From Acidimicrobiales bacterium (GTDB lineage Bacteria; Actinomycetota; Acidimicrobiia; Acidimicrobiales; UBA8190): 47,137 nt of DNA. The stretch lies in assembly GCA_035319705.1 (NCBI GenBank), contig DATHCF010000409.1, positions 1 through 47,137 on the forward strand. The letters run 5' to 3'. Positions within the stretch are counted from its first letter, which is position 1; the number at the start of each line of letters is the position of its first letter. This document shows, one piece after another, positions 1,068-23,165 of this stretch. The notes beneath the pieces are model-generated. The model worked only from the letters and a program-made list of their open reading frames with translations. It searched no databases and was not told the DNA's origin. The translations under genes and the position numbers were made by a program.

Positions 1068-1706
1068 ATGAATGAGGGACCCGCACCAATGCCCATGAGG
1101 GCAGCTCGCCGGCGGACAAGGCGATTCAGTCGGGTCACGGCCGCCTGGTACTCGTGCAACGCGGCGCGCTACGACCGGGTGGTGACCCGTGGGATGCTGC
1201 GCCTCGCGACCGGCGGTGGAGGCCGCGATGCCATCGCTGCCTGGGCGCGCTCGATCCCTCCGGACATGGTGCCCGTGCTCGACGTGCCGACGGGGACCGG
1301 CGAGTACCTCCCCGTCCTGCCCCGCCCCGCTGTGGGTGCTGATCTCGCCGCCGGGATGCTCCGGGAGGCGGCGGCTCGTGGCACAGGTGCGTTGCTGGTG
1401 CGAGCCGATGTCTTTGCGCTGCCGTTCCCGGACGCGTCCTTTGGGTCTGTGTTCACATCGCTCGGACTCCAACTGATGCCGCGGCCGAGCGAGGCCGTGG
1501 CCGAGATGGCGCGCGTACTGCGCCCGGGCGGCCGGCTGGTGGGCGCGGTGCCCGTGGGCCTGTTCTCGCGGTTCCTCAGCGCAGCGAGCCTCCGTCGGGC
1601 GCTCGAGGTTCCCGGTGTAGACGTCCTCCGACTTGAGCATCGCGGCTGGCTCGTGGTGTTCACGGCCGAAAAAAGCACGAGGGCCGGCGACGGGAGCGGC
1701 GCCTGA
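1068..1706 (+). CDS. class I SAM-dependent methyltransferase (Methyltransf_11-like, small-molecule type)
   Basis: SAM-binding motif I VLDVPTGTGEYL, post-I ADLAAGML, ADVFALPFPDASF, and MARVLRPGGRLV. The exact start is uncertain (several in-frame M between 1068 and 1190). Confidence 0.8.
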   Translation: MNEGPAPMPMRAARRRTRRFSRVTAAWYSCNAARYDRVVTRGMLRLATGGGGRDAIAAWARSIPPDMVPVLDVPTGTGEYLPVLPRPAVGADLAAGMLREAAARGTGALLVRADVFALPFPDASFGSVFTSLGLQLMPRPSEAVAEMARVLRPGGRLVGAVPVGLFSRFLSAASLRRALEVPGVDVLRLEHRGWLVVFTAEKSTRAGDGSGA

Positions 1707-2051
1707 GCGAAGGACCTCAGCCGACCTTGTGCTGCCCTCAGCCGAGGCGTTTCGCCGAGCATGTGGTGGACGCAGGCCGGAGGACGGCCCGAGCGCCTCG
1801 GCGGGCGGGTAGCTGAGCCGCCAGGCCGGCGCCGCCCATATTGTGAGCGAGTGCAGAAGGTCCGATCTCTAGCGGGCTGATCGGGACTCCAGGTTGACTC
1901 TGAGCCGTCCATATCGAGACGGTTCACGCGCCGCTAAGAGTCGCTCGTGAACGCCGATTATGCCGGTCCGCCACCCATTGACTCAAGCCCCTACGGGTGT
2001 TGTTATTGGCGGGTTGGGCCGCTCGCGGCCCTCACGGGCCCTTTGACGGTG

Positions 2052-2068
2052 TGCCGCGGCCCGCGGCA
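2052..2068. terminator. GC-rich palindrome TGCCGCGG-C-CCGCGGCA in a convergent intergenic region (possible terminator, no U tract)
   Basis: Perfect 8-bp arms 10 nt beyond the stop of the minus-strand helicase gene. A second palindrome, GGGCCGC-TC-GCGGCCC, lies at 2016-2031. Confidence 0.25.
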
Positions 2069-2077
2069 GCCCTATGG

Positions 2078-4450
2078 TTAGAGGTAGGTGGGCTCGCCGC
2101 AACCCAGACTCCTGTAGCCCTTGCATCGCTCGCGATGGGTGTAGGCGAGCACAGGCACTTTGCTGTCAAGGTAGTCGTGGACCTCGATGCTCGTCTTGCC
2201 GGGGTGGGTACGAAGTGTGCGACCCACGTATTGCACCACACGGCCCTTGAACTTGGTAGGAAAGGCGAGAAAGAGCGTGTCCAGAACCGGGCAGTCGAAT
2301 CCCTCGCCCAGGTAGGGTCCCGTCGCCACGGCGAGCACCGGATCACCATGGGGCGGTTCACGGAGGGATTGCACGGCAGCTCGCTTCGCTTTCGCCCCGA
2401 GCCCTCCGTGGAGCAGGACAGGTGTACGTCCGACCTTGCGCAGACCCGCCGTCAGGATCTCGGCATGCGAGGTTCGGCTTGTGAGCACAAGGCAGTTGCG
2501 GCCTCGTTCAAGCGCCTCCCGGACGTCATCGACGATTGCGGCGTTGCGCTGCTCGTCCTCCACCAGAGCCCTATAGATGTCCTGCAGTACCGAGAGCGAG
2601 ATGGGAGCGGCCTCTGTCTCGTAAGTGAACGACGTCGAGTGGACGAGAACCTGACGGATAACTGGACCATGACTCGACGTGGAGTCGTCAGCACCGAGCA
2701 CCCGATGTCGGAGTGGGCCACATTGCATGAGGATCATTTGGTCGAGTCCGTCACTGCGATATGGAGTTGCGGTAAGCCCGATCCAGCGGCGGGCCGGGAT
2801 CTGACGAACGGCTTGCTCGAAGGTGGCAGCTGGGAGGTGGTGGCACTCGTCGGAGACGACAAGGCCATAACCACTGAGCAACTCTCCCAGGTCATCGCGC
2901 CGAGCGAGGGTCTGGAGCGACGCCAGGTCAATCACGCCGGTTTGCTTTCGCCGACCCCCGCCCAGCTGTCCGATCTTCACCCCAAGGAACCGATGGACCT
3001 GTTCACGCCACTGGTCCAGTAGAGCACTGCGGTCCACCAAGATGAGACTGGGCAATCCGAGCCGGGCGATGAGCGCGCAAGCGACCACGGTCTTTCCGCT
3101 GCCCGGTGGGGCCTCGAGGACCCCGAGTTCGTGAACTGACATCTCCTGAAGTGCAGCGTCTTGGAGCGGGGAGAGCTGTCCGGAGAACTTGAGCTCCAGG
3201 GGTGCGTGCTCAGGCCGGTCGTCGACGATCTCGAGACGGCTACCGGCCTGGCGAATGAGTTCCTCGGCGATCTCGGACACACCCCGGGGCAGGTGAAGGA
3301 AATCGAGATCCTCCCGGTAACACCGGATGAATCGAGGCACACCGAAGGTCGATCTCCTTTGCTTCTCACGCTTGTAGAACTCGGGATTGTGGATGGACGC
3401 TGCATGTTTGAGAGAGCTCAAGAGTGCTGGAGGCAGTCCGGCCCGTTCGATCGAGAACGACGCGGACAACCGCGCCCGGATGACAGCGGGCGCGGGGGGA
3501 TGTGTGCGTGTGGCTGTGCTCGTTCGAAGCCGGACAACCTCTGATCCGACGGCGGGAGGCCTGAGGGCTTCGGCAAGCTCCGTCGCCCGCCGCGGAACGA
3601 CGCGTTCGAGACTTGATAGGTACGAGAACTGATCGTGATGCGGCTCGATCGTGGCCAGATCGAGGAAGACCGTCGTGCCGCGTTTGCGGCAGTCGCCTTG
3701 TAAAGGGAGAGCAATGAGGTTGCCAATTGATCCCGAGGCCGGAAGGTAGTCCTGGGCCGGAAAGAGCCGATCGTAGCTTGACAGGTCGAGCTCGCCTCGC
3801 ATTGCGATCGCCTCTCGAAGAAGTCCAGCTCCAATCCGGCGCGCCACCATGGCAGGCACCGGGCCCGTGAAGAACATCCACACGTGAGCGCCTGACCCGG
3901 AACGGGAAATCTCCAGGCCGGTGGGGACATCAAAGGCTCTCGCAGCCTTGCTATAGGCAAGAGCATCGAGCAGGGCTGCAGGCCCGTCGAAGTCACACGC
4001 CAACAGACAGCAGGTATCCCCAGCCATCAGCGGATACAAACCGGCATGGATCTCTCCGGTCAGGTGAGCTGTCACGACGTCGTCGGTCAGGGGCAGGTAC
4101 ATACGATTTCGCTGCCCGCGCCGGAACCCCCCTTCCACCGCGGGCATCCAGCCCGAGCGGCCGGTTCGCTCGTTCTCCCAACGGACGGCATATACGTCGT
4201 CGCGGCCGACGAAGAGACTGCGAAAGAAGGCGAGCTTGTCCTGACTCGAAGAGGCGTGGTCAACAGCACCCGGTGCGCCGCTGAACAGAGGCGCTCGAGC
4301 CGGCTCGTCGGGAAGTGCACGAGGTCCCACCAAGCCGAGGAGGCGCTCAAGGCGTGCGTTCTCCGCCTTGAGATGCTCGACTTGGTCTTTCAGCTCGGTG
4401 AGCACGGGATCTACGGACAACGGCGATCGACGGTGTGCGGTCGAGCTCAT
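2078..4450 (-). CDS. archaeo-eukaryotic primase (Prim-Pol) domain fused to an SF2 (DEAD/DEAH, ResIII-like) helicase
   Basis: 790 aa. N-terminal coiled coil LTELKDQVEHLKAENARLERLL. AEP hallmarks DDVYAVRW, ACDFDG (acidic metal motif), SGSGAHVWMFF, GNLIALPLQG. Helicase motifs PPGSGKT (I), DECHH (II), GLTATP (III), QYVGRTLR (VI). Confidence 0.9.
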   Translation of the reverse strand: MSSTAHRRSPLSVDPVLTELKDQVEHLKAENARLERLLGLVGPRALPDEPARAPLFSGAPGAVDHASSSQDKLAFFRSLFVGRDDVYAVRWENERTGRSGWMPAVEGGFRRGQRNRMYLPLTDDVVTAHLTGEIHAGLYPLMAGDTCCLLACDFDGPAALLDALAYSKAARAFDVPTGLEISRSGSGAHVWMFFTGPVPAMVARRIGAGLLREAIAMRGELDLSSYDRLFPAQDYLPASGSIGNLIALPLQGDCRKRGTTVFLDLATIEPHHDQFSYLSSLERVVPRRATELAEALRPPAVGSEVVRLRTSTATRTHPPAPAVIRARLSASFSIERAGLPPALLSSLKHAASIHNPEFYKREKQRRSTFGVPRFIRCYREDLDFLHLPRGVSEIAEELIRQAGSRLEIVDDRPEHAPLELKFSGQLSPLQDAALQEMSVHELGVLEAPPGSGKTVVACALIARLGLPSLILVDRSALLDQWREQVHRFLGVKIGQLGGGRRKQTGVIDLASLQTLARRDDLGELLSGYGLVVSDECHHLPAATFEQAVRQIPARRWIGLTATPYRSDGLDQMILMQCGPLRHRVLGADDSTSSHGPVIRQVLVHSTSFTYETEAAPISLSVLQDIYRALVEDEQRNAAIVDDVREALERGRNCLVLTSRTSHAEILTAGLRKVGRTPVLLHGGLGAKAKRAAVQSLREPPHGDPVLAVATGPYLGEGFDCPVLDTLFLAFPTKFKGRVVQYVGRTLRTHPGKTSIEVHDYLDSKVPVLAYTHRERCKGYRSLGCGEPTYL

Positions 4451-4470
4451 CAGGTTTGCGGCACAACTCG

Positions 4471-4788
4471 TCAGGCGGTCCGTTTGCTTGGAGGGCCCAG
4501 CAGTCTGAATCGCCGACGTCCCTTTACCGCAGCCACCTCGAGCTGGCCACCCAGTGCGGCGACGTACTGCTCGAGGACTTCGATTGTGACATTTCGTGCC
4601 TGCTCAATCGCCGCTACTCGTGGTTGGGAGACGCCGATCCTCCGTGCCAGCTCGCGTTGTGAAAGACCGGCTTGCTCTCTGAGCGCGGTGAGCGCCGTGG
4701 CGATCCGGAGTTCCTCCTCGATCTCGACCACGCGTTCCTCTGCCCCGTCTGCCGAAAGTACCTTCTGCTCCCAATCCTTCACGCTCAT
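4471..4788 (-). CDS. XRE-family HTH antitoxin (HigA-like)
   Basis: HTH LSQRELARRIGVSQPRVAAIEQ. Its ATG overlaps the stop of the upstream toxin frame (TGATG at 4786-4790). Its stop lies 20 nt before the helicase-fusion start. Confidence 0.8.
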   Translation of the reverse strand: MSVKDWEQKVLSADGAEERVVEIEEELRIATALTALREQAGLSQRELARRIGVSQPRVAAIEQARNVTIEVLEQYVAALGGQLEVAAVKGRRRFRLLGPPSKRTA

Positions 4789-5215
4789 CAGCGTCTTCCG
4801 ATCTTCTTATTACCGCTCGATCTGGCACTCTTCGAGTTCGTCTTCGTGGCTGGCCTCGTCTGGATCTGAAGTTCGTGTTCGTCAAGTCGATCGTCAGCGA
4901 TGGGGATGTTGCCGTCGTACCAGGTCTTCCAGTCACTGCTCTTGTAACCGCCCACGAGAAGGATCGCCCTGCGCTTCGTGTCGAATGCAAACGGCACGCG
5001 GATCTCGCTACGCCCCGTAGACCTTGGTCGAAGCTCTTTCATATTCGGGTGGCGGCTTCTTCGATGCTGTCGACGAGCGGTTTCCCCAAAGCGGGGCCGA
5101 CGTCGCGAAGCACACGAATGGCGGCCAGCAGTGCCTCTGAGTCCGCCTGGCCGAGTGACGAGGCCCATCTCTCGAAGGCTGGGTGGAATTCAACTTCCCA
5201 GGGGCGCTTGGCCAT
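4788..5215 (-). pseudogene. RelE/ParE-superfamily (HigB/Gp49-like) toxin, split by a 1-nt frameshift
   Basis: The N-terminal part MAKRPWEVEFHPAFERWASSLGQADSEALLAAIRVLRDVGPALGKPLVDSI is in the frame of ORF 5039-5272. The C-terminal part SRHPNMKELRPRSTGRSEIRVPFAFDTKRRAILLVGGYKSSDWKTWYDGNIPIADDRLDEH is in the frame of ORF 4788-5168. The frames switch between 5063 and 5057. Confidence 0.7.
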
Positions 5216-5245
5216 TCCTATAACAGTATCATTATCACGGCTGCG
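5216..5245 (-). promoter_or_regulatory. AT-rich patch upstream of the toxin start; possible leaderless-type -10 (TACTGT, 7 nt before the ATG)
   Basis: The minus strand reads GTGATAATGATACTGTTATAGGA-ATG. This is the only AT-rich stretch in this GC-rich neighbourhood. TANNNT lies 7 nt upstream of the ATG at 5215. Confidence 0.3.
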
Positions 5246-5600
5246 GGCCTCCCAGAGCTTTGGAATGTGCACGAACGAACTCGTCGCCGCCGGGTTTCAA
5301 CAGGTGGAGCACTTAGGAGCGACACCTGAGGGTCGTCCAGAATGAAAAATCGGGGCCTGACAACGCGGGTCTGTGGGCGCCGGCGCCCGCCCCGATCAGA
5401 CGGCTCCGCGTGCGGTCCGACACGCTGACCCCGCGCCATAATTGAGGGCGCTCCGGCTTGCCGGATGGGGTAGGCGCCCGGTACCGACTGCCCTCGGGGA
5501 GTCGCCTGGGGTGTAGGGCGTGAAGGTTGTGGACGACGCCGCACGCGCTGCCATGATTGCCCTCGGAGTCGCGCACGGCGAAGCGTTGTTGGGGTATCGC

Positions 5601-5622
5601 CGTGAGAACCTCCGTGAGAACC
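5601..5622 (+). repeat. direct repeat CGTGAGAACC x2 (12-bp register)
   Basis: CGTGAGAACC at 5601-5610 and 5613-5622, about 135 bp left of the tRNA fragment. Confidence 0.5.
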
Positions 5623-5753
5623 AAAGGCGCCGTAAAGCTGGTTACGAGCGGTGTGTCTTGGTCTGTCGCTGTCACAACAACCGACCAGCTGGGAGGCTGT
5701 TTCGGTCCGTTTCGGGCGACCACGGACCGCTGTGAACCAACCCATTATTCGAA

Positions 5754-5795
5754 CTACGGATCAGAAGGTTGGGGGTTCGAGTCCCTCCGAGCGCG
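5754..5795 (+). other. 3' half of a tRNA-Arg(ACG) (anticodon loop to discriminator), not a complete gene: att-like scar
   Basis: CTACGGA (loop, anticodon ACG), TCAGA, AGGTT, GGGGG-TTCGAGT-CCCTC (T arm), CGAGCGC-G (acceptor 3' strand). No matching 5' acceptor (GCGCTCG), D arm or 5' anticodon stem upstream. Confidence 0.65.
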
Positions 5796-5816
5796 CTGAC
5801 CTGCGGTTTGGACTTC

Positions 5817-5846
5817 GAGAGCATCTGATCGGAGAGCATCTGATTC
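5817..5846 (+). repeat. 15-bp tandem duplication GAGAGCATCTGAT(CG/TC)
   Basis: gagagcatctgatcg followed directly by gagagcatctgattc. Confidence 0.8.
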
Positions 5847-5921
5847 TTGGGGGAATATTCCGGCGGCTTCACAGCTCCTCGAAAAAGAGCCTCTAACCGA
5901 AGTCCGCGACGCCACCAAGTG

Positions 5922-6078
5922 CGGTGCACCAAGACCGGGAATAGCTCGGCGAATAAGACGCTCCGGGCACCCGCCAGCCTTCCACCAGTACGGTCCACCG
6001 AGGCCGGGGAATAGCTCGGCAAATAAGACGCTCTGGGCGCCCTCCAGCTTTCAACGGTGCGGTCCACCAATTCCGACC
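5922..6078 (+). repeat. about 69-bp tandem repeat, 2.3 copies, non-coding
   Basis: Units at 5922-5990 and 5991-6059, plus a partial third from 6060. They share CGGT(G/C)CACC...GGGAATAGCTCGGC(G/A)AATAAGACGCTC(C/T)GGGC at roughly 80 percent identity by eye. Confidence 0.75.
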
Positions 6079-6534
6079 CCCAATCCGACACCGCTAATGC
6101 CATAGGCGAGATTCGGTGTCTCGTTGAGCGAGGTGTGGTCGCCACACCCCTCCGGGTCGAGGTCTCCGGTCCTAGCCAATCCAGAGCTGGCTGGACGTGG
6201 AAAGCGTAAAACATGACTCTTCTGGGCCTCTGCGGAGGGATCGGCTCGCGGTTGGTTGGGATCGGACCTAGGCGTGCGCAGCGAGCGACAGATGGGCGGA
6301 TCGCCTTGCGAGGGGGTCAAGAATGGATAGTCCCCCATCTCCTCACCGATCTCGTCCACGATGGCTGAATGGCGCTTCCCGGACGGCGAGGAGCAACCAA
6401 TGCCCAGAACTCCGAGGCCGTCAAGGTGCTCCACGCCGAAATCGTCTCCCTGAAGACCTCCAATCCAGAGATGACCTGGAAGGAGGTTGGCCTGGCGACC
6501 GGCTACCACGGAAAGTACTGCGCACAGGTTTTTC

Positions 6535-6726
6535 GAACACATCTGGCATGGAGACCGGGACCGCAACGTTCCCATCTCGCACGGTCGGCTGTTGGCGAAG
6601 GTGATCCCCGACGCCAGGCTGCACGAGTGCCCCGGTGAGGGCCACTGGCTCGTCGTCGACCACATGGGAGAGGTCCTCGACGTGCTCAAAGGTGCTTCAC
6701 GAGAAAGAGGCGCGCAGCTCCGGTGA
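6535..6726 (+). pseudogene. alpha/beta hydrolase, C-terminal fragment only
   Basis: HIWHGDRDRNVPISHGRLLAKVIPDARLHECPGEGHWLVVDHMGEVLDVL is the catalytic Asp/His tail of alpha/beta hydrolases. No nucleophile-elbow (GxSxG) part lies upstream. Confidence 0.5.
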
Positions 6727-7126
6727 CCGGCGGAGGACCGTGACCCGCCACCATCGAAGGCAGATGGGTGGACGGCACGACGAGCCCCTGTTTGTGCGGG
6801 GTTGAGCCGGAGCAAGGCGACTGGATCCGCCCCCGTGTGTCCCGTCAGGGCCGAAAGTCCCTACTCCGGCCAGCCACCACCGCCGATCTTCCGGGGGAGG
6901 AGGCAAGTTATCAGCTGTCTTAATCGCATGTGGTGGCGACCTACGAGACGCCGTTCATACCTGGAACCGTATCAACTCGGGTCGAGCCGCTCCTCACTCC
7001 ATACGAGGTCCAGCAGCCTTTACAAATCTTGCGTTGCCCTTCTCTGGCTTGGTCGCCCAGCCTGAGTTCGACCGCTTCCTGTCTGCGTGAAAAGTCGGAC
7101 TTGCAACTGTCCGGTCGGTGAAGCTC

Positions 7127-7438
7127 CTACGGCCGAATCCATTCCTGGTATTCAGCTCGATCCTGCAAAGGTATAAGCCCCAGGCTTTCAGCTAAGGCCC
7201 GAGCCTCGTACTGACTCATCTGCTGATGGTCATGGCCTCCGTCCTCATAATGGAAGGTTGCGACACCTGGACCCTGCCGATGCTCACGCCACACCAGGCG
7301 CTGAATGCCCGTCTCTGGACTGGAAACCATTGGGAAATGGTAGCTGGAGTATCGAGCGCCTCTCACAGCCCGAGCTACCCACGGTAACGACCTTTGCTCA
7401 CACGCCTTGTGGCAGATGTTAGTTCGACCGGGACGCAA
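7127..7438 (-). CDS. hypothetical protein
   Basis: 103-aa ORF with no recognisable motif. The true start may be the internal MVSSPETG. Confidence 0.3.
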   Translation of the reverse strand: MRPGRTNICHKACEQRSLPWVARAVRGARYSSYHFPMVSSPETGIQRLVWREHRQGPGVATFHYEDGGHDHQQMSQYEARALAESLGLIPLQDRAEYQEWIRP

Positions 7439-7465
7439 TGCTGTCGATGGTTGGTTTCAATGCGC

Positions 7466-7858
7466 TTAGCGAACGATGACGACCGGGCAAGAGGCGTAGT
7501 GGGCGCAGTAGGAACTGACCGTCCCCAAACGGCGTCGTGTGCCGACTACAAGGAGGCTGGCTTCGCCGGAACTGTTGACTAGGGCTTCACCAGGGGACCC
7601 CTCCACCACACGCTGGTCGATCCTCAGTGAAGGATGCCGCTCGGCCACCCGCATGGATGCGGTGCTGATCACCTCGTCCGCCCATGTGTGGAAATCGGCA
7701 TCGCTGAAGCCTGTTCGACCATGGGCCGTCGGTGTAGGGAGATGCCAGGTCACGATGATGGCTAACGAATGATCGAACCTGGCAGCAAACTCAGCTGCCC
7801 AGTCGAGCGCGGCCATCGATTCATTCGACCCGTCGACTCCCACAACGACTGAACCCAC
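7466..7858 (-). CDS. universal stress protein (UspA family)
   Basis: VVVGVDGSNESMAALDWAAEFA ... LLVVGTRRRLGTVSSYCAHYASCPVVIV. Confidence 0.85.
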   Translation of the reverse strand: MGSVVVGVDGSNESMAALDWAAEFAARFDHSLAIIVTWHLPTPTAHGRTGFSDADFHTWADEVISTASMRVAERHPSLRIDQRVVEGSPGEALVNSSGEASLLVVGTRRRLGTVSSYCAHYASCPVVIVR

Positions 7859-7969
7859 AGCAGTTCTCCCACTCCAGCGTGGTTAGTTCTTGGTGACTTC
7901 CGGCGCTCCATCCTCCCCACCAGTCGATGGCGAAACCCGGACGGCGCAACAGTCAAGCAGGTCAGGTGA

Positions 7970-8129
7970 CGACTTTCCGGTACGGCCACGGTCGCCGAGG
8001 TTGCTGCCGAGATGATGCAGCAGTATGTACGCTACATCCTCGTCGCGCAGGACGGCCATCCTGGTGGGCATAGTGTCGGCTCGTGACGTGCTTGGCGTGT
8101 ATGCAGCTGCGGACGTCGACATCGAGTAG
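7970..8129 (+). pseudogene. CBS-domain remnant with a frameshift
   Basis: LSGTATVAEVAAEMMQQYVRYILVAQDGH in one frame continues as LVGIVSARDVLGVYAAADVDIE-stop in the next frame, with one extra base near 8060. An in-frame TGA lies at 7967-7969 and no first CBS repeat is present. Confidence 0.45.
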
Positions 8130-8224
8130 CGCAGGAGTTCCCAGCGGCTGACCCGAGGCCTGTCTCTGCCTCAGTTACTCGAGAAGCTGAGTCTCTAGTG
8201 AATGGAGGCGAAGCCGCCGAGACC

Positions 8225-9076
8225 TCAGCCGACTAGCACCCTGGCCAGCTCTCGGTACTCGCTCATCGGGAACCCCTCCTTGCCGGTCACCACCTGCACG
8301 CATACGTGGTCAGCCCCGGCCTCGAGGTGCTCCCAGATCCGCCCGGCAATGGCATCGAGGTCACCCCACGCGACGACGGCGTCCACCAAGCGGTCGCTCC
8401 CACCCCCGACGAGGTCCTCCTCGCCGTACCCGAGCCGCCGGAGGTTGTTAGCGTAGTTGGGCAGCCCAAGGTACCCGGCAGTGAAGCTCCTGGCCAGCTC
8501 GTGCGCCTTGGTCGGGTCGGGCTCAAGAACGACGGTCACCTCGGGAGCGAGGAGTGGACCGGAACCCATCACCTCCCGAGCGCGGGCCGTAAATTCTGCC
8601 GGAACGAAATACGGGTGTGCTCCGGCCGCTCGCTCCGCCGCAAGCTCCAGCATGCGCGGTCCGAGGGCGGCGAGTACCCGGCGGTCCTTGGCCACCGCAG
8701 GTCCAGCCGAGTCAAGGGCATCGAGGTAGCTCACCATGCGCGAGTACGGCCTGGTGTAGTTCTCGACTATCGCTGAATGGCTGGCTCCGAGGCCCAGGAC
8801 GAAGCGCCCGGGGTACTTGGCATCGAGGTCTGCGACCGCCCCTGCGACGTCTTCGTGGGAGGATGCCCAAATGCTCACGATGCCGCTGGCGACAGTCAGC
8901 TTGGTGGTAGCGCTCAGGAGCCGACCGAAGCGAGACGACAGGCCGGGGTTGAAGCCGCCGCTCGACCAGATCGCCCCATAGCCGAGAGCTTCCAACTCTG
9001 CGGCCACGTCGAGGTGAGGCTGGCCGGGGGCCTCCCAGGAACCGCTCCACCACACACCAACCGAGCCCGCGTCCAC
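8225..9076 (-). CDS. LLM-class F420-dependent oxidoreductase (luciferase-like)
   Basis: GVWWS...ELEALGYGAIWSSGG...FVLGLGASH...LGLPNYANNLRRLGY...AWGDLDAIAGRIWEHLEAGADHVCVQ is typical of the TIGR03620-type family. Confidence 0.85.
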   Translation of the reverse strand: MDAGSVGVWWSGSWEAPGQPHLDVAAELEALGYGAIWSSGGFNPGLSSRFGRLLSATTKLTVASGIVSIWASSHEDVAGAVADLDAKYPGRFVLGLGASHSAIVENYTRPYSRMVSYLDALDSAGPAVAKDRRVLAALGPRMLELAAERAAGAHPYFVPAEFTARAREVMGSGPLLAPEVTVVLEPDPTKAHELARSFTAGYLGLPNYANNLRRLGYGEEDLVGGGSDRLVDAVVAWGDLDAIAGRIWEHLEAGADHVCVQVVTGKEGFPMSEYRELARVLVG

Positions 9077-9198
9077 TAGGGAAACGCTAGTGCGTGCTCA
9101 GACCCGTAGCCCGGGCCGTCGTTACCGAGCGGATCGCTCCCTGGCCCCAGTGGCGAGGTATCGGCACAGTGACTTGAGATCGGAGGTGGCTTTCGTTC

Positions 9199-10272
9199 CT
9201 AGCCTTGACCGACAAGCCGTGCCCCCTGTGGAGCGGGACCGACCGGTAATAGTGTCAGTCTGTCAAGGGTTCTGACGGCGTCGATAACTTGAGCCGCATC
9301 CTCGGGGCCGATGATAGTGACCGTCCCACCCTCACCGCCTGCTCCATTCACCTTCCATCCAACGGCTCCGCACCTTTGCGCCACCTCGATCACCTGTAGT
9401 GCCCGGTTGCTGACCAGTCCCAGCTGCAAAGCGGCTTGCGCCTCGGTATTGGAGATCATCGCCGCGCCATAGTCTTCGATGTTTCCTGCTTCAAGGGCAC
9501 TGGCGGCACGAACGGCGGCAGAACGCAGAGGTTCCAGGAGCATCTCAACATCGCTGCCGGCGAGCCGTGAGATGACGGCCTCATGCACGGCGCTCGAATG
9601 GTGCGAAGTACCGAGGTACACGGTCACCATTCGCCGGGACAGTGCCTCCCAGGTGGATGGGGCGATCTCCAGCGAGCGCACCTCGGTCTGGGGATACGGG
9701 TCGATCTTAATTAGATTGGCCCCGCCATTGGCGGCGGCGATCTGATCCTGTACTCCGCTTTGCCCGCCGAGGTCAATCGTCTCGATGTCGTGGGCAGCGG
9801 AGGCAAGGGTCGTTGGGTTTGGCTTCTCGCCGAAGAGGCTCTGGAGGGCAAGGACCAGGGCCACCACGACAGATGCCGACGTCCCCATCCCTGAGCCTGA
9901 TGGGACTGACGACGTGACGGTGATCTCAAGCGCGCAGTTGAGGGGGGTCCACCTGCGAAGAGTCGATTCCAAGAGCCGATGACGCCCAGGAAGAGCTTCG
10001 TCGAGCCCAAAGCGGTACCGATCCCCGTAAGACGGCAGGTGGAGCTCAATGGTCCTTTCGTCGAAAGAACCGGCTTTTCCACGCTTTTGAACAAGGACAT
10101 CGATACCGGGTTCCACAGCAAGGTTGCAAACGGTTCCATGGCCCGCGAACCATGTGTCGGTCCACCCGCCAGCATCGAGTACACGTACCGGAGCCCCAGC
10201 TCGGACCCAGTTCGTCACACCGGTTACGTTAGGTCCTGCCAGGGACCGACCGGGTGACGCGGCCCGGAACAT
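9199..10272 (-). CDS. GHMP-family sugar/small-molecule kinase
   Basis: N-terminal APVRVLDAGGWTDTWF and GHMP motif II VPSGSGMGTSASVVVALVLAL. Confidence 0.8.
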   Translation of the reverse strand: MFRAASPGRSLAGPNVTGVTNWVRAGAPVRVLDAGGWTDTWFAGHGTVCNLAVEPGIDVLVQKRGKAGSFDERTIELHLPSYGDRYRFGLDEALPGRHRLLESTLRRWTPLNCALEITVTSSVPSGSGMGTSASVVVALVLALQSLFGEKPNPTTLASAAHDIETIDLGGQSGVQDQIAAANGGANLIKIDPYPQTEVRSLEIAPSTWEALSRRMVTVYLGTSHHSSAVHEAVISRLAGSDVEMLLEPLRSAAVRAASALEAGNIEDYGAAMISNTEAQAALQLGLVSNRALQVIEVAQRCGAVGWKVNGAGGEGGTVTIIGPEDAAQVIDAVRTLDRLTLLPVGPAPQGARLVGQG

Positions 10273-10591
10273 TGCCGCCTGGGCTGGGCTCCCGGACAGG
10301 GCCTAACTGCCCTGCCCGATCACACAGCCGCCCCCGCGAGCCATCGGTAACAACACCTCGCCCGAGGTCCATTCGTGGCCCTGACCGCTCGGCTCGAGCG
10401 GCGCTTGCGTCCTCGGGTCTCCATCTGACCCTCCAGGTCCGGAGATGTCGCGGTCACCCCTTGAGCCCAAGTGGGGAGCGATCCCGGTCAGGTCTCCTCG
10501 GGAGCGGGGTAGCCGCACACCGCTGCACAGCACAGTGCGATCCGTCGAGGGAGGACGCTGCTGCAGGCGGGCGAGCCTACGATCGGACGCC

Positions 10592-11752
10592 GTGGGTCAA
10601 GACTTGCCGGTCTCGGGCACATGCGCGAGCGAGTTCAAGGCGGTGAGAGAGGCGTTTGTCGCCAACTTCACTGAACGAGGCGAGGTGGGCGCAGCGGTGT
10701 GCGTGATGATCAACGGCGAGGTCGTCATCGACTTGGTAGGCGGCTGGATAGACGACGCACATACCCGGCCGTGGCGGGACCGCACCTTGGTCAACATCTA
10801 CTCAGCCGGCAAGGGCCTGCTGGCCACTCTCGCCCTTCAGCTGATCGATAAGGGCCGGCTCGCCCTCGACGGCCTGGTCGGAGGCATCTGGGAGGACTAC
10901 GCCTGCCGGGGCAAGGAAGATACCCTGGTGCGCCACGCAATGGCTCACCTGGCCGGCGTCCCGGCGATCCGAGAGCCGCTCACTAACGACGACCTATGGG
11001 ATTGGGACCGGATGACCGCAGCCCTTGCGGCAACCCAGGCCTGGTTCGAGCCAGGAACCCGGGTCGTGTACCACACGAACACCTATGGCCATCTGGTCGG
11101 CGAGATCATCCGGCGGGCGGGCGGGCGAAGTGTGTCCGAAGCGCTGCGAGAACTGACCTTGGGTCTCGGTGCAGACGTATGGTGTTCAGTGCCACCAGAG
11201 GAACAACCTCGCTGCGCCGATGTGATCTTCGATCCTCCACCGGCGCTGCGAACCTCCATGGCGCGAGCCACCAGCTCTCGGGACGAACTGCAACGAATGA
11301 CCTTCTTGGCCTACCTGAACCCGCCCGGCTACGGGTCGGCCGGCGTGGTCAACACTCCTGAGTGGCGAGGTGCCCAGATTCCTGCCGCCAACGCCCACGC
11401 CACCGCCAAGGGTTTGGCGCAGGTCTACGCCGCTCTGCTTGTTCCGAACCGTCTGGTCTCGTCCGATCTGCTTGTCGAAGCCACAACGATCCAGGCCGCG
11501 GGGGACTGCCCCATCCTGGGCGAGCATGTGGAATACGGGCTTGGCTTTGTGCCAACCTCGGCCAGGCGGCCCATGGGCACGAATAAGCGAGCCTTCGGAC
11601 ACTTCGGCACAGGAGGGGCGGTTGGTTTCGGAGATCCGGACGCAGGCCTTGCCTTCGGGTACGTCATGAACCATGTCGTGCCGCGTTGGCAGAGCACCCG
11701 GAACCGAGCGCTCATCGACTCGCTCTACCGCTGTCTTCATCGGTTTGGTTGA
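10592..11752 (+). CDS. serine hydrolase, beta-lactamase/EstB-like family
   Basis: SxxK motif IYSAGKGL, and N-terminal FKAVREAFVANFTERGEVGAAVCVMINGEVVIDLVGGW. The start is placed at the in-frame GTG 10592; the track ORF opens at 10445. Confidence 0.85.
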   Translation: MGQDLPVSGTCASEFKAVREAFVANFTERGEVGAAVCVMINGEVVIDLVGGWIDDAHTRPWRDRTLVNIYSAGKGLLATLALQLIDKGRLALDGLVGGIWEDYACRGKEDTLVRHAMAHLAGVPAIREPLTNDDLWDWDRMTAALAATQAWFEPGTRVVYHTNTYGHLVGEIIRRAGGRSVSEALRELTLGLGADVWCSVPPEEQPRCADVIFDPPPALRTSMARATSSRDELQRMTFLAYLNPPGYGSAGVVNTPEWRGAQIPAANAHATAKGLAQVYAALLVPNRLVSSDLLVEATTIQAAGDCPILGEHVEYGLGFVPTSARRPMGTNKRAFGHFGTGGAVGFGDPDAGLAFGYVMNHVVPRWQSTRNRALIDSLYRCLHRFG

Positions 11753-11931
11753 ACGCAGCGAGGCCGGAATCAGTGCCGCTGAGCCTGAGAGCGCTCTGGT
11801 AACGCGCCGTGGAGCGATCGCGGTCAGGTGCCCTCCTGAGTTGGGTAGATGGCATGTAGCGGGGACCCCCTCCGCTCAAGTGCGTGACGCTGGACGCACT
11901 GATTATTCACATGAGCTGGAAGAGGTCCCCA

Positions 11932-12003
11932 ATGCCGATCGTAGGAGGGCTGGACATTCACCGGGCACAGATCACCTTCGACTATCTGGATGAAGATATC
12001 TAA
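11932..12003 (+). mobile_element. IS110-family transposase, N-terminal stub (23 codons then TAA)
   Basis: MPIVGGLDIHRAQITFDYLDEDI-stop matches the characteristic IS110 (DEDD) N-terminus (..GLD.H...ITFDYLD). The rest of the gene is missing. Confidence 0.45.
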
Positions 12004-12470
12004 GTTTCCCGGGGCCACCTGAGAAGAATCCAAGGAGACTGGTTACCCCGCCAATCAATGGTGAGCTCTGGTCACAGCCGTCGCTGAGATAAGCCTGCTC
12101 TGTTAACTGCGCAGAGCTTCCGACATAATCGGCGTCACCCGAGTAAGTAGCGACGATAGTGTTGTTGCCCAAAGACAACGATGAGGTCGTGCAGGGCGCC
12201 GCGAAAGCATCAAATCCGGCGACATAGAAGTAAAGCGGTTGGTTCCCACACCCAGAGATGATGTTTCAATGGTCGGTGAATGCCGAGCGCACTAAAAGTG
12301 ACTGGTTGGCCCAGACGCGAGATCGAACGGACAGAGTAAAGGATTGCATTAGGTGGCGAGACTCGTGATGGCGTCTGACGATTGTGAGACCGTGGTTGTG
12401 GTGGACGATTGGGAAACCGTCGTTGAAGCCTGATTTACAGAGTGTCTGATTCCAGATCCCCGGCTGTGCT
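11972..12470 (-). pseudogene. shattered Ig-like (Big-type) surface/adhesin protein fragment
   Basis: Minus-strand pieces lie in different frames: ASTTVSQSSTTTTVSQSSDAITSLAT-stop, GQPVTFSALG, and CTTSSLSLGNNTIVATYSGDADYVGSSAQLTEQ. Confidence 0.35.
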
Positions 12471-12579
12471 CCCTGGGGCCTCTGATCACCGGTCAGGAGC
12501 TATTTTTCAGAATCCCCATTCGTCTTGCTCTTCGACTTGGCCGAGAACCTCCAGCCACCACCTAACATCTGAGCGACCT

Positions 12580-12924
12580 TCAGCTGCCTGGTCGACTTAA
12601 ACCGTTGCCCTCGTGGTCGTAGACCACGGCTCGGCGTTCGTGTGCGTCGTTGTATGGCCCCTTCACGATGCCACCGCTGTTGGCCTCAACAGACTGGGCT
12701 GCCGCATCGACGTCGGCGGTCTTGATGCGAACGACGACCTTCCTGGGCATGGGGTGATCTGCAGAGGTCGCCAAAGCGACGGTAATCGACCCTCCGTCAA
12801 GGGCTGCCAAGTGGGCTCCATCGCGGAACTTCAGCGACATCCCGAGGGTCTCGGTGTAGAAGTGGATTGATTCATCCAGGTTGTCGGTTGACAAGAGAAC
12901 CTTTCGTACGTCATGTTCACTCAA
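12580..12924 (-). CDS. VOC (glyoxalase/bleomycin-resistance) family protein
   Basis: LSTDNLDESIHFYTETLGMSLKF ... AVVYDHEGNGL, single-domain size (114 aa). Confidence 0.8.
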   Translation of the reverse strand: MSEHDVRKVLLSTDNLDESIHFYTETLGMSLKFRDGAHLAALDGGSITVALATSADHPMPRKVVVRIKTADVDAAAQSVEANSGGIVKGPYNDAHERRAVVYDHEGNGLSRPGS

Positions 12925-13037
12925 CGGGTCCTCCTCGGACGGGACTAAGCAAAATTAGGTGAACCGCAAGTTCTCATGACCGAGCCCACACCTTCGGATC
13001 CCCTCCGTAATCCGGTGGCTCGCGCTCCGAGCGATGG

Positions 13038-14228
13038 TCAGTTGCCCGCCGGAAGCACCTTGTCCGGCAAGGGATGTCGGTAGAGTTCGGCAGCGTTCTC
13101 GCAGCACATTCGGCGCAGCTCCATCGGCGGGATGTGGCCCCAAGACCTCGCGATCGTCTCCTGGGTGTCGGGCCACGTGCCGTCGCCATGGGGGTAATCG
13201 ACCTCGAGCATGATGCGGTCGACACCGATTGAGTCTCGGGTGTCGATGGTCGATGGGTCGTCCAGAGTGCAGAACCAGAAGTTGCGGCGAAGGACCTCGG
13301 CCGGCCTCAGATCCCAGCCAAGGCCGTACCCCGACCGGTCGACAAGGTTCTCGAGGCGGTCCATGAGCATGGCGACCCACCCGATGCCGCCTTCTGACAT
13401 GGCTACCTTGAGATCGGGGAATCGCAGCGCCCATCCGGACCAGAGCCACTCCGCACAGGCGGTCATGGACATCTGGCCGAACAGTGTCGCCGCGAGCTGT
13501 ACGGCTGGGCACCCCTCAGGCATGTCGGCCATACCCGACGAGCCGACGTGGAGGCTCACTACCGTGTTCGTCTCGGCGCAGGCTCTGATAATCGGCTCCC
13601 AATAGTCCAGGAATATCGACGGCAGTCCCAGGCGGTGGGGGCGTTCGGGGAGGGTGACCGAGCGGAATCCGCGCTCGGCGTTGCGGCGGATCTCTGTGGC
13701 TCCGAGAAACGGATCGGTGAGAAAGGTGATGCCGAGCGGAATAATCCGATCCGGGTACGGCGAATACCACTCCTCAAAGACCCAGTCGTTCCAGGCGCGG
13801 ATGACGGCGAACCCGAGCTCGGGATCCGAGCACTGTGAGAAGACGCGGCCGCAGAAGCCGGTGATCATGGAAGGGAAGTTGAGCGAGGCCCACACGCCGT
13901 TCAGATCCATGTCGTGGATGCGGGCATGGACGTCCCAGCATCCTCGGCGCATCTGGTCGAAACGGAACGGCTCCATCTTCACCGTCTCCGGCCGTCGACC
14001 GGCCACTGCGTTCATACCGACCTGCGAGTAGGTGTTCCCGTCGAACCGCCAGATCTCGTGGCCGGCCTTGGTCTCGAAAATCTTCGGCGCTCGGTCGGCC
14101 AGGTGCGCCGGCACACGACCCTTGAACATGTCGCCAGGCTCGACCACGTGGTCGTCCACCGATATGACGGTGTAGCGGACCTCACGCGGCTCCGGTTCCG
14201 GGAGAAATAGGTCCTCGGCAAGGCTCAT
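13038..14228 (-). CDS. amidohydrolase (Amidohydro_2 / ACMSD-LigI-like TIM-barrel metal hydrolase)
   Basis: N-terminal metal motif VISVDDHVVEP, LHVGSS, and C-terminal MLEVDYPHGDGTWP. Confidence 0.9.
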   Translation of the reverse strand: MSLAEDLFLPEPEPREVRYTVISVDDHVVEPGDMFKGRVPAHLADRAPKIFETKAGHEIWRFDGNTYSQVGMNAVAGRRPETVKMEPFRFDQMRRGCWDVHARIHDMDLNGVWASLNFPSMITGFCGRVFSQCSDPELGFAVIRAWNDWVFEEWYSPYPDRIIPLGITFLTDPFLGATEIRRNAERGFRSVTLPERPHRLGLPSIFLDYWEPIIRACAETNTVVSLHVGSSGMADMPEGCPAVQLAATLFGQMSMTACAEWLWSGWALRFPDLKVAMSEGGIGWVAMLMDRLENLVDRSGYGLGWDLRPAEVLRRNFWFCTLDDPSTIDTRDSIGVDRIMLEVDYPHGDGTWPDTQETIARSWGHIPPMELRRMCCENAAELYRHPLPDKVLPAGN

Positions 14229-14394
14229 CTTCGTACTCCTCTGTCCTCAACCTTATCCGCTGGCCTCGAGAGCCAAGACTTGGCCCACAGTTTCTGCCGG
14301 CTAGAGGACCTGCGGCAACGGCGCAGCAGCTGGGGGAATTTCGCGGTCCGGATGCCGTCGATTGGCCTCGGTGTGGGACTTAGAGACTGCCATC

Positions 14395-15639
14395 CTAATT
14401 GATGAAAACGAGAGGCAACGGTTCGATCTGACGAATCCCTGGGCTGTAGCGGAGGTTCACTTCGGGCGCGATCTCATAATTGGGGATCAGCTTGTGCCAC
14501 TCCTCCAACGCCACACTCAGCTCCCGTCGCGCGAGATGCGAACCGAGGCAACGATGAGGGCCTCCACTAAAAGCGAAGTGCCGGTTTCCAGAGCGTCCGA
14601 AGTTCACCTCGTCGGGGTGGTCGAAAATCCGCTCGTCAGTATCGGCAGCTCCGAGCAGGAGCATGACCCGTGTGCCAGGCACCAGACAGCGGTTGCCGAT
14701 GTCAATCGGTTCTGTAACCACGCGTGGAACCATGGTGACGGGAGTCTCGAATCGAAGGAGCTCTTCTACCGCCGACGAATTCATCAAGGGTGTATCGACA
14801 AAGCACTTGCGTTCCTCAGGATGTGCCGCAAGCCGAGCGAGCATGCAGTCGAGAGATGCTGTCACCGTGTCAAGACCACCGAGCAGAAACAGATAACACA
14901 TCCCCAGGACCTCGTCCTGATCGAGGCGATCTCCTTCGATTTCGGCGGTTACAAAGAAGGTGAGCAAATCGTTACTAGGGTTCAACAGCCGTTGGGCAAT
15001 GGCAGACTGGAAATACTCATCAATGGCCGCACCGGCCTGCTTCCGGATCGCGTTCATCGCCTCGAGGTCGTATGGGTCATCGACGACGGGCCGAATGATG
15101 GCGTCCTTCCAGGCGAGGAAGCGATCCAGATCCTCAAGTGGCAGCCCCATGAGCCGCAGGAAGATCGTGCAAGGGAACGGCACCGCGAACTCGGCGTGGA
15201 AGTCACATGATCCTCGATCGACGAAATTCGCCAGAAGGTTGCGGGCAAGCTTCCTGATCTCAGGTTCCATACCGTCGATGACCTTGGGACCGAACAGGGG
15301 ATCGAGCACTCTCCGGTAGCGGGCATGGTTGGGCGGGTCGACCTGGAGCGGGATCAGCGATCTCGGCGTGCCGAGGTCGATCGGGTCTTGGGCAGATGAG
15401 AAAAGGTGGGGATGGCGAAGGGCATAGTGAACGTCCTCGTAGCGAGAGATGAGCACCGTGGGCTCGCTGTCCGTGCCGAAATAGGCAATGCCCAGGTCTC
15501 GCAGTTGTCGGTACACGCAATGGGGACTGGCAGCTGCCTCTGGCGTGAAGAGTTCAGGAGTCAAGAGTTCTCTCGGGGGCCCCTCGTGCCCAGCTCCGTT
15601 CCTGCCAGAGGTGATCTCGAGTTCGTCAGAGTCTGTCAT
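14395..15639 (-). CDS. cytochrome P450
   Basis: Heme loop FSGGPHRCLGSHLARRE, EELLRFETP (ExxR), and I-helix LLGGLDTV. The start is taken at MTDSDE (15639), which avoids overlapping the upstream gene. Confidence 0.9.
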   Translation of the reverse strand: MTDSDELEITSGRNGAGHEGPPRELLTPELFTPEAAASPHCVYRQLRDLGIAYFGTDSEPTVLISRYEDVHYALRHPHLFSSAQDPIDLGTPRSLIPLQVDPPNHARYRRVLDPLFGPKVIDGMEPEIRKLARNLLANFVDRGSCDFHAEFAVPFPCTIFLRLMGLPLEDLDRFLAWKDAIIRPVVDDPYDLEAMNAIRKQAGAAIDEYFQSAIAQRLLNPSNDLLTFFVTAEIEGDRLDQDEVLGMCYLFLLGGLDTVTASLDCMLARLAAHPEERKCFVDTPLMNSSAVEELLRFETPVTMVPRVVTEPIDIGNRCLVPGTRVMLLLGAADTDERIFDHPDEVNFGRSGNRHFAFSGGPHRCLGSHLARRELSVALEEWHKLIPNYEIAPEVNLRYSPGIRQIEPLPLVFIN

Positions 15640-22817: not shown

Positions 22818-23165
22818 TCAGGGGCGAAGGATGTTCGATATGCGCTGGTGACTCACGCCGAAGGCCCGACTGATTGCCGGAATGCTTGTTTCCTCCGCTC
22901 TCATACTGCGGACAAGGGCTCGACGTACTCTCCCGCTCGTGCTCATCGAGCGGCCAAGGGCTCGACTTAGCAGCGGCAGAGTGTCTCCGAGGGACTCCGA
23001 GGAAAGAGCAGTGGTCACTGGCGTTCCCTGGTCGAGAAGCCGCCGCAAATCCTTGACCTGCTTCACTAGCCGGGCTTCGTCTTTGCGGTTTGCCTTTATG
23101 GCATCCAGCAAAGCCCCCAGCGCGGCAGACACCTCTTCACGGAGGGCGCTTTCCTCCTCTGGCAC
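22818..23165 (-). CDS. coiled-coil plus C-terminal helix-turn-helix protein
   Basis: C-terminal HTH SIPAISRAFGVSHQRISNIL and a charged helical N-terminus. Confidence 0.55.
   Translation of the reverse strand: MPEEESALREEVSAALGALLDAIKANRKDEARLVKQVKDLRRLLDQGTPVTTALSSESLGDTLPLLSRALGRSMSTSGRVRRALVRSMRAEETSIPAISRAFGVSHQRISNILRP

Follow-up and report, generated by a model that had tools for sequence, protein, structure and literature searches.

A distant IEE homologue behind a frameshifted toxin–antitoxin cassette in a putative tRNA-Arg island remnant of an Acidimicrobiales bacterium

What is the role of a protein that joins a primase-polymerase to a superfamily 2 (SF2) helicase and is encoded directly behind a toxin–antitoxin (TA) cassette? 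The question is raised by positions 2078-5215 of a 47,137-nucleotide contig of an Acidimicrobiales bacterium (DATHCF010000409.1, assembly GCA_035319705.1); the whole contig is called the window in the following. A first-pass annotation, made from the letters of the sequence, had proposed a candidate conflict (defence) module or a module for the replication of a mobile element. Judged by its sequence the protein is instead a new, distant member of the family of the Escherichia coli enzyme IEE, located on a decayed tRNA island.

Three genes are closely packed on the minus strand between 2078 and 5215: the 790-codon open reading frame (ORF) of the fusion protein (2078..4450), a 105-codon gene for an XRE-type helix-turn-helix (HTH) protein (4471..4788) and, upstream of it, a Gp49/HigB-like gene (4788..5215). 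Exactly 20 nt separate the TGA of the XRE gene (4473-4471) from the ATG that starts the large ORF at 4450. Where the ATG of the XRE gene (4788-4786) and the TGA of the toxin gene (4790-4788) overlap, the sequence reads TGATG. The ORF, the gap, the overlap and all motifs quoted in the first-pass annotation are present in the sequence.

The 790-aa protein and its kinship to IEE

The large ORF is intact and its translation contains DDVYAVRW, ACDFDG, SGSGAHVWMFF, GNLIALPLQG, PPGSGKT, DECHH, GLTATP and QYVGRTLR. Pfam detects the archaeo-eukaryotic primase (AEP) family AEP-TOTE (PF22548) at aa 71-288 (E=5.8e-70), ResIII at aa 428-565 (E=1.4e-21) and, weakly, Helicase_C. The profile search which the first-pass annotation had suggested for AEP/Prim-Pol, ResIII and Helicase_C has thereby matched all three, and the AEP-TOTE label that it had proposed is correct. 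Likewise, the proposed architecture of a coiled coil, a Prim-Pol domain and an SF2 helicase is borne out by Pfam, by a profile search of the PDB sequences and by alignment.

At the N-terminus a helix/coiled-coil segment (aa 14-37; 4340..4411, minus strand) carries the motif L(K/R)AENARLxRLL. In an alignment of 16 homologues L27, E30, N31, R33 and L34 are invariant, and the segment is aligned to LRAENARLVSLL of IEE. In an AlphaFold2 model the segment is helical, with pLDDT values of ~59-64 for aa 11-30 and of 44 for aa 31-40; it might serve in dimerisation or in the bridging of DNA ends.

The AEP (Prim-Pol) domain (aa 71-288; 3587..4240, minus strand), recognised by Pfam, PADLOC and the PDB profile search, contains the motifs A (hDhD), B (sxH) and C (hD) and, as in the IEE family, a tyrosine at the position of the histidine that selects for rNTPs. 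By equivalence to IEE the metal ligands are D153, D155 and D227, the nucleotide-binding residue is H189, and Y139 replaces the histidine sensing the ribose 2'-OH. The XPB/Rad25-like SF2 ATPase ('helicase') domain (aa 428-765; 2156..3169, minus strand; Pfam ResIII/Helicase_C and PDB search) also has the motifs of the IEE family, namely the Walker A lysine K453 (GSGK453T), DECH at 534-537, TAT at 560-562 and the arginine finger R744 (QYVGR744). D153, D155, H189, D227, Y139, K453 and R744 are all invariant across the 16 homologues.

For the PDB search a profile built from these 16 homologues was used. The ATPase half matched XPBII (6p4f, 9.3e-28) and Rad25 (2fwr, 2.4e-20) as well as RadD and UvsW, and the closest solved structure for the AEP half was the CRISPR-associated primase-polymerase (CAPP) of Marinitoga (7nqd, 5.5e-11). 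It is on these profile matches (Pfam, PADLOC and PDB) that the AEP fold is assigned. The AlphaFold2 model, calculated from the 16-sequence alignment, was set aside (mean pLDDT 59, pTM 0.44, AEP region mostly below 50), and no fold search was made with it because matches from so poor a model would be meaningless.

The likeness to CAPP invites the explanation that the protein takes part in CRISPR spacer acquisition. PADLOC assigns the protein to its PrimPol model PDLC01465 ('PrimPol, CAS-associated', E=1.3e-76), and the NCBIfam model PrimPol_Msp is matched as well (1.1e-13). The latter match, however, reaches 50.6 bits and is far under the cutoff of 200 bits, and E. coli IEE gives the same CAPP match without having a link to CRISPR. 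There is no CRISPR-like array in the 47-kb window, and Cas domains were seen neither in the window ORFs that were examined nor in the families most often flanking related genes (the top 25 Pfam families of the 137 nearest ORFs in 78 loci with homologues). For the window locus we consider a function as CAPP effectively refuted.

Much closer is the relationship to IEE of E. coli O157:H7 (ECs1305, Sakai chromosome). BLASTP aligned the two proteins colinearly with 36% identity at 97% coverage (E=2e-151), from aa 22 to 783 of 790 and from aa 8 to 774 of 786, the N-terminal LRAENARLxxLL helix being part of the aligned region. With 1.7e-98 IEE is also a top-scoring member of AEP-TOTE, and ResIII is common to both proteins. 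The IEE residues modelled or mutated by Calvo et al. (PMC9943667), D142, D144, H178, D216, Y128, K451 and R735, correspond to D153, D155, H189, D227, Y139, K453 and R744 of the protein described here. Also for IEE the nearest solved structures are CAPP for the AEP domain and SF2 proteins of the XPB/UvsW type (10.1101/2023.06.07.543989). The older AEP classification places the family in the Prim-Pol clade as the 'E. coli Z1568-like family' (PMC5862659; PMC9943667). It is large, with more than 6,000 database clusters at E<=1e-10, many of which are named 'TOTE conflict system archaeo-eukaryotic primase domain-containing protein' by NCBI.

The first-pass annotation had held that this family is predicted only computationally. 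This does not apply to a full-length homologue of IEE, which has been characterised genetically and biochemically (PMC9943667; reviewed in 10.1101/2023.06.07.543989). According to these two papers IEE stimulates the transposase-dependent excision of IS629 and other insertion sequences (IS) of the IS3, IS1 and IS30 families, often with adjacent deletions. Its AEP domain is a Mn2+-dependent, error-prone DNA polymerase tolerating primer/template dislocation, and its C-terminal domain is a DNA-dependent ATPase which does not unwind duplexes in vitro. End joining by the enzyme, seen with 3' overhangs having 4 nt or more of homology in common, depends on both domains. IS629-like transposases co-occur with IEE in 94.75% of the IEE-carrying E. 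coli assemblies.

By homology to IEE we would expect the ATPase domain of the new protein to bind, hold or synapse DNA ends or stalled 3' termini. The enzyme would then find and anneal short microhomologies, and the paired 3' end would be extended with dNTPs in a Mn2+-dependent, error-prone reaction. In the cell the effect would be a transposase-dependent loss of copy-out-paste-in IS (IS3, IS1 and IS30 families), often with adjacent deletions. The reading that we consider probable is that the gene encodes an IEE-family enzyme and is the surviving cargo of a degraded tRNA-Arg(ACG) element.

The same activities could also be those of a general host polymerase for the repair of double-strand breaks or gaps, a bacterial analogue of DNA polymerase theta, without a special relation to IS elements and with an incidental location on an island. 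Such a role is suggested by the in vitro activities of IEE, which amount to generic microhomology end joining and gap filling (PMC9943667), by the combination of a polymerase with an SF2 ATPase, which parallels polymerase theta (PMC11724360), and by the fact that no IS of the target type was seen in the window. Yet excision by IEE requires the transposase (PMC9943667; 10.1101/2023.06.07.543989), IEE is found together with IS629-like transposases at the high frequency given above, and instead of a conserved chromosomal repair context the genes have a patchy, horizontally transferred distribution on islands and plasmids near integrases, TA modules and IS elements. We therefore regard a role confined to general repair as very improbable.

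The frameshifted cassette and transcription of the locus

The cassette in front of the IEE-like gene had been taken for an intact HigBA-like module. The XRE-type HTH gene (4471..4788, minus strand; 105 aa; HTH_3 at 8.9e-13 and HTH_31), the HigA-like antitoxin of the cassette, is indeed intact, but the Gp49/HigB-like toxin gene (4788..5215, minus strand) is a pseudogene. The frame opened at ATG 5215 stops at TGA 5041-5039 after 58 codons, and homology to Gp49 resumes in the -1 frame and extends up to the stop at 4788. With 428 nt the length of the gene is not a multiple of three (one short). The split frames give complementary profile matches: the N-terminal half covers positions 2-54 of phrog_3445 and the C-terminal half positions 46-97, and the C-terminal half also matches positions 27-89 of 90 of Pfam Gp49. 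Intact relatives of 113-125 aa read '..(L/I)E(G/H)SR..NMKELRP' through the break. A deletion of 1 nt in 'GAAGGAAGC', near 5055, suffices to account for the lesion; programmed -1 frameshifting is unlikely, since a slippery heptamer of the type X XXY YYZ is missing at the break.

An independent assembly of an Acidimicrobiales bacterium contains the same locus. This metagenome-assembled contig (DASPSK010000377.1, our locus L001) is 99.7% identical to window positions 1226-5691 and has, in its region 520-964, the same break sequence as the toxin gene of the window. Because the lesion is shared by an independent assembly, the toxin gene is a real inherited pseudogene and not the result of a sequencing error. 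In the large ORF the two loci differ in six codons, five synonymously and one non-synonymously, which suggests purifying selection on the IEE-like gene; with five out of six differences being synonymous, the large gene appears to have been maintained while the toxin is dead.

Since the toxin is frameshifted, the module as it stands cannot serve as an addiction system. A dead toxin next to an intact XRE gene and an intact IEE-like gene is the pattern expected of a decaying TA module whose antitoxin is kept as a regulator. In two related loci (L089/L090) the Gp49 toxin is intact, and its XRE partner has 37% identity to the XRE protein of the window.

The first-pass annotation had treated the three genes as one transcription unit, and this remains likely because of the 20-nt gap, the TGATG overlap and the absence of a predicted terminator or promoter between the genes. 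A consensus scan detected no promoter-like or terminator-like site between them. Its only terminator-like matches are two in the coding sequence of the IEE-like gene, no more than chance would produce. Directly upstream of the toxin start there is an AT-rich stretch, GTGATAATGATACTGTTATAGGA (5216..5260, minus strand), which on inspection of the sequence is a candidate promoter/operator and probably holds the promoter of the unit. The IEE-like gene would then probably be transcribed together with the intact xre gene from the old TA promoter, and with the toxin dead the XRE protein might act as a plain autorepressor of the unit.

The tRNA-Arg fragment and the surroundings of related genes

To the right of the cassette, the 44 nt from 5753 to 5796 (plus strand) correspond to positions 31-74 of tRNA-Arg(ACG), that is, from the anticodon loop to the 3' end. 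In a blastn-short comparison this stretch is 91% identical to the intact gene of the related locus L015 (E=4e-11) and it also matches the intact tRNA-Arg(ACG) of L066. The fragment was recognised only by comparison with intact tRNAs of related loci; neither ARAGORN nor Rfam (gathering threshold in the window, E<=1 on 5500-6100) detected a complete tRNA. The tRNA-fragment boundary of the first-pass annotation is accordingly real, and its placement of the locus in mobile accessory DNA is confirmed. By its sequence the fragment is an att-type boundary of an element integrated to its left. Given how the fragment is oriented, the integrated DNA is on the left side, and the unit of TA genes and IEE-like gene would thus be the outermost cargo. 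A second att copy, an intact tRNA-Arg or an integrase remnant was not found in the 47-kb window, which leaves the island without a defined left end. To sum up, the locus has the appearance of a tRNA-Arg island of which the distal end survives in eroded form, with a single att fragment remaining, no integrase or intact tRNA and a frameshifted toxin.

Some further sequence features adjoin the fragment. A stretch of 60 nt (5692-5754) next to it is absent from L001 (57-61), which could reflect a real indel at the att boundary or an artefact of the L001 contig end. Just right of the fragment, at 5816-5845, there are two tandem copies of the 13-nt sequence GAGAGCATCTGAT at a distance of 15 nt. The core of GAGAGCATCTGAT corresponds to positions 21-31 of tRNA-Arg(ACG), immediately 5' of the start of the att fragment (E=0.58 per copy), and the copies could be scrambled tRNA/att debris or a chance match. 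Two direct repeats of 49 nt (5937-5985 and 6007-6055; 88% identical, 70 nt apart) follow in a region, ~5800-7400, without an ORF matching Pfam. An Rfam match to mir-5316 at 5932-5991 is far below threshold and was taken as chance.

In five of the related loci the homologue is flanked by a tRNA gene on one side and by a direct repeat of the 3' end of this tRNA on the other, so that the island location recurs among the homologues. The smallest segment, 4.1 kb in L066 (9585-13787), is bounded by tRNA-Arg(ACG) and a repeat of 43 nt and contains a PIN_3/HTH_17 pair. Segments with an integrase and a Gp49/XRE pair are found at a tRNA-Met in L067 (5.0 kb, 8980-14135; repeat of 46 nt, further repeat at 4249-4294) and at a tRNA-Thr in L045 (6.2 kb, 7094-13370; repeat of 39 nt, further repeat at 21496-21535). 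L015 has a 6.7 kb segment at tRNA-Arg(ACG) (2797-9610; repeat of 43 nt, further repeat at 2393-2427) with genes for a Helicase_C_3 protein and a CcbP-like protein, and L079 one of 5.3 kb at a tRNA-Phe (6908-14729; tandem repeat of 47 nt) with a gene for an AAA_14/DUF4143 protein. The 43-nt tRNA-Arg segment bounding the segments of L066 and L015 is the same as that of the window fragment. A TA pair is included in three of the five segments, and two of these three also contain a tyrosine integrase. Several of the tRNA-bounded loci have two or three tandem copies of the repeat, which suggests arrays of small islands at one tRNA.

Segments of this size bring up the question whether the protein is the replicase of a small integrative element. 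The excised circle of 4-7 kb would be primed and unwound by the primase and the helicase, with the TA genes serving for addiction and the integrase bringing the circle back into the chromosome. Mobile elements of archaea and bacteria usually have AEP-helicase fusions as their replicases (PMC5862659, PMC11724360), and the att-bounded 5-6 kb segments of L067 and L045, holding integrase, gene and HigBA, as well as the 4.1 kb segment of L066 with the gene and the PIN_3/HTH_17 pair, have the content expected of a minimal self-maintaining element. The protein itself, however, differs from replicases such as pRN1 ORF904, P4 alpha and the D5-like proteins: its helicase is an XPB-like SF2 enzyme and not a hexameric SF3, SF4 or MCM helicase, Pfam detects no PriCT, D5_N or zinc-finger priming module, and E. 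coli IEE has DNA-dependent ATPase activity but does not unwind (PMC9943667). None of 50,697 phage records contains a full-length homologue, the matches being confined to the helicase and to at most 59% of the query. Full-length homologues are present in 98 of 72,556 plasmid records; among the matches listed these are replicons from ~90 kb to megabase size, mostly larger than 100 kb, and for the one plasmid inspected (pLS1-1, L092) a replicon type of the plasmid itself is already present (rep_cluster_235). Repeats resembling iterons or origins do not adjoin the IEE-like gene of the window. A role as initiator of element replication, one of the two roles first proposed for the protein, is for these reasons improbable.

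Having asked whether the linkage of the gene to TA/HTH genes recurs, we find that it does so in part: some TA module is usually next door, but family, position and orientation vary. All seven Gp49 and all seven PIN_3 occurrences within +/-8 kb lie less than 2 kb from the homologue, so TA modules abut the IEE-like gene far more often than they would if scattered. The closer relatives examined (60-71% identity, nine loci) have a TA-like pair next door in 7/7 cases. A Gp49/XRE pair upstream of the gene and co-directional with it is confined to the window and L001; such pairs are downstream and co-directional in L020, L033, L045 and L061, divergent in L067 and convergent in L089/L090. Directly upstream on the same strand there are PemK and an RHH gene in L087, and a small RHH gene with an unknown partner in L088 and L091. 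Further TA neighbours of the homologues are PIN_3/HTH_17, RES/Xre, ParE/Phd, HicB and DUF5615 pairs. The TA link is therefore a real physical association, with the family, the side and the strand varying, and not a specific conserved partnership.

An all-against-all clustering of the ORFs from 80 genome loci carrying homologues did not yield a conserved partner gene, since no ORF cluster occurs in more than 15 of the 80 loci and no partner in more than ~14% of the loci. The most frequent adjacent cluster, found in 11 loci mostly of Pseudonocardiales, consists of an unknown protein of ~388 aa (starting with MSEYQYYEFLAVDRPL) without a Pfam match. Its gene is immediately upstream on the same strand in L005, L010, L011, L012, L021, L022, L036, L065 and L078 and adjacent in L009 and L079; five of these loci also carry a gene for an unknown 123-aa protein further upstream. 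The 388-aa protein might be a lineage-specific partner of the homologues. An SNF2-family helicase with DUF3670 is encoded 2-7 kb from the homologue in two closer relatives (L083, 2943-5783; L085, 16921-18403).

These neighbourhoods also bear on the other role first proposed, that of an effector in a TOTE-like or TA-coupled conflict system against phages or plasmids. The AEP-helicase would make or remodel nucleic acid on the invading DNA while the HTH/TA genes would sense or regulate. In favour of this one can cite the naming by Pfam and NCBI after the 'TOTE conflict system AEP domain', the Cas-associated PrimPol model as best PADLOC match, the tight packing of Gp49 and PIN_3 toxins around the gene, and neighbours of the relatives which are typical of defence islands (TA toxins, AbiEii, Fic, HNH_2, SLATT/LSDAT proteins). 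TOTE, as the work of Aravind, Iyer et al. 2022 is cited in PMC12458937, stands for TPR, OB, TBP and Effector. Neither a TPR nor an OB/cold-shock nor a TBP-fold component is found among the window ORFs around the gene, among the 25 most frequent flanking families or in the Pfam annotation of the seven closer relatives. PADLOC gives no match at the system level, the low frequency of any partner argues against a conserved system, and the toxin in the window is a pseudogene. Moreover, the family member that has been characterised is active on insertion sequences. The searchable literature yielded no phage-defence phenotype; a search for anti-phage AEP-helicases gave only work on reverse transcriptases and proviruses. 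With the TOTE partners not found and the protein being a relative of the characterised IEE, an uncharacterised conflict module is an improbable explanation of the locus.

Several observations speak against our preferred reading of an IEE-family enzyme left behind as cargo. The identity to the characterised IEE is only 36% and the two hosts belong to different phyla, so the biological role could differ. No IS3-, IS1- or IS30-family element is present among the ORFs examined in the 47-kb window, where the sole transposase is of the IS1595 family. For IEE the mechanism in vivo is disputed between end joining after transposase cleavage and strand switching in copy-out (10.1101/2023.06.07.543989). 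As to expression, the ATG of the IEE-like gene is not preceded by a Shine-Dalgarno sequence, the consensus scan found no sigma-70-like site in 5216-5260, and the promoter is proposed there from inspection of the sequence. Finally, the tight recurrent TA linkage and the integrase in two of the 5-6 kb segments could mean that the gene serves the element and not the control of IS elements. Taken further, IEE-family Prim-Pol-ATPases would be the core gene of widespread tRNA-integrating elements of 4-7 kb in Actinomycetota, which carry an interchangeable TA operon and sometimes a tyrosine integrase, with the TA operon providing stress-responsive transcription and the enzyme serving the element. If so, the enzyme would replicate or repair the excised circle or act against competing mobile DNA, rather than against the IS load of the host. 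We consider this proposal unlikely at present and retain the reading of an IEE-family enzyme on a degraded element.

The first-pass annotation had seen no partner gene downstream of the large ORF; 1707-2077 is indeed without a convincing ORF in the ORF list, but a gene for a class-I S-adenosylmethionine-dependent methyltransferase at 1068..1706 (plus strand; Methyltransf_11, 8e-17) had been overlooked. It runs convergently to the IEE-like gene, whose stop is 371 nt away, and belongs with the UbiE-like methyltransferases of small molecules and not with the DNA methylases. The G+C content at third codon positions is 0.70 for the IEE-like gene and 0.80-0.87 for the neighbouring core genes; the methyltransferase gene with 0.80 is core-like. 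Right of ~7.4 kb there are ordinary metabolic genes (Usp, LLM oxidoreductase, amidohydrolases, P450s, GGDEF-EAL, permease). Two direct repeats of 28 nt (82% identical, 42 nt apart) at 22900-22969, in a stretch of lower G+C content, are unrelated to the IEE-like locus. The transposase gene mentioned above (IS1595 family, ISXO2-like; 46239-47135, plus strand; DDE_Tnp_IS1595, 6e-47) is the only one seen in the 47 kb and runs off the right end of the window.

Comparison with known systems

The value of the present analysis is mainly corrective: a protein labelled 'TOTE conflict system AEP domain-containing' is a relative of IEE and belongs to an enzyme family with a known biochemistry and a genetic phenotype, and it should be left out of counts of uncharacterised defence candidates. 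For the study of IEE two leads emerge, namely that the gene is repeatedly found in Actinomycetota inside tiny tRNA-bounded islands, and that some TA module is almost always adjacent, the gene being in several cases directly downstream on the same strand. Should the TA linkage be functional, it would inform on when IEE-type enzymes are expressed and might help to decide on the role of IEE in vivo, which could be the joining of ends after transposase cuts or the abortion of copy-out transposition.

The cassette resembles type II TA modules of the HigB/HigA (Gp49/XRE) kind in its toxin-first order, in the overlap of the antitoxin ATG with the toxin stop and in the Gp49 and HTH_3 domains. It differs from them in the frameshifted toxin, a lesion common to the second strain. 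With TOTE systems the locus has the effector domain in common, the family having been named by Pfam after these systems, but this domain alone describes E. coli IEE equally well. As the TPR, OB and TBP partners are not found, the Pfam name does not make the locus a TOTE system.

By profile CAPP of Marinitoga piezophila (PDB 7NQD/7NQE/7NQF) is the closest solved AEP, and the PADLOC PrimPol match is strong. In contrast to the protein described here, no fusion to an XPB-like SF2 domain is reported for CAPP in the matched chains, and the window gene is outside of a CRISPR-cas context. The ATPase core is similar to XPB/Rad25 (Sulfolobus XPBII, AfXPB), E. coli RadD and T4 UvsW (9e-28 to 1e-11; motifs I, II, III and VI). 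These proteins, however, have no AEP domain, and a nuclease partner of the Bax1 type was not found at the window locus. DNA polymerase theta is a functional analogue only: it also combines a polymerase with an SF2-type ATPase and promotes microhomology-mediated end joining (PMC11724360), but its polymerase has a different, unrelated fold (family A, not AEP) and its domains come in the opposite order, and we do not claim homology.

The comparison with IEE itself reveals differences in the setting. The host is an Actinomycetota of the Acidimicrobiales type and not an enterobacterium. The window gene stands directly behind a TA cassette, whereas in SpLE1, the tRNA-integrated element in which E. 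coli iee sits among IS30, IS66 and IS3 copies, AlpA, DUF3987 and ECs1304 are upstream, and no IS3, IS30 or IS1 copies were found near the window gene. In the Actinomycetota plasmid pLS1-1 of Pseudonocardia (242 kb; L092, NZ_CP011869.1 73309-87666) a 55%-identical homologue lies among IS3, IS630 and IS5 transposase genes, a setting which echoes the IS-rich surroundings of iee in SpLE1. The proteins themselves are alike throughout. With 790 and 786 aa they are of nearly the same length, they belong to the same Pfam family and have the LRAENARL helix, the AEP domain, the linker and the SF2 ATPase in the same order, the catalytic Asp, His and Tyr residues, the Walker A lysine and the arginine finger are equivalent, and both genes are found on tRNA-associated integrated DNA.

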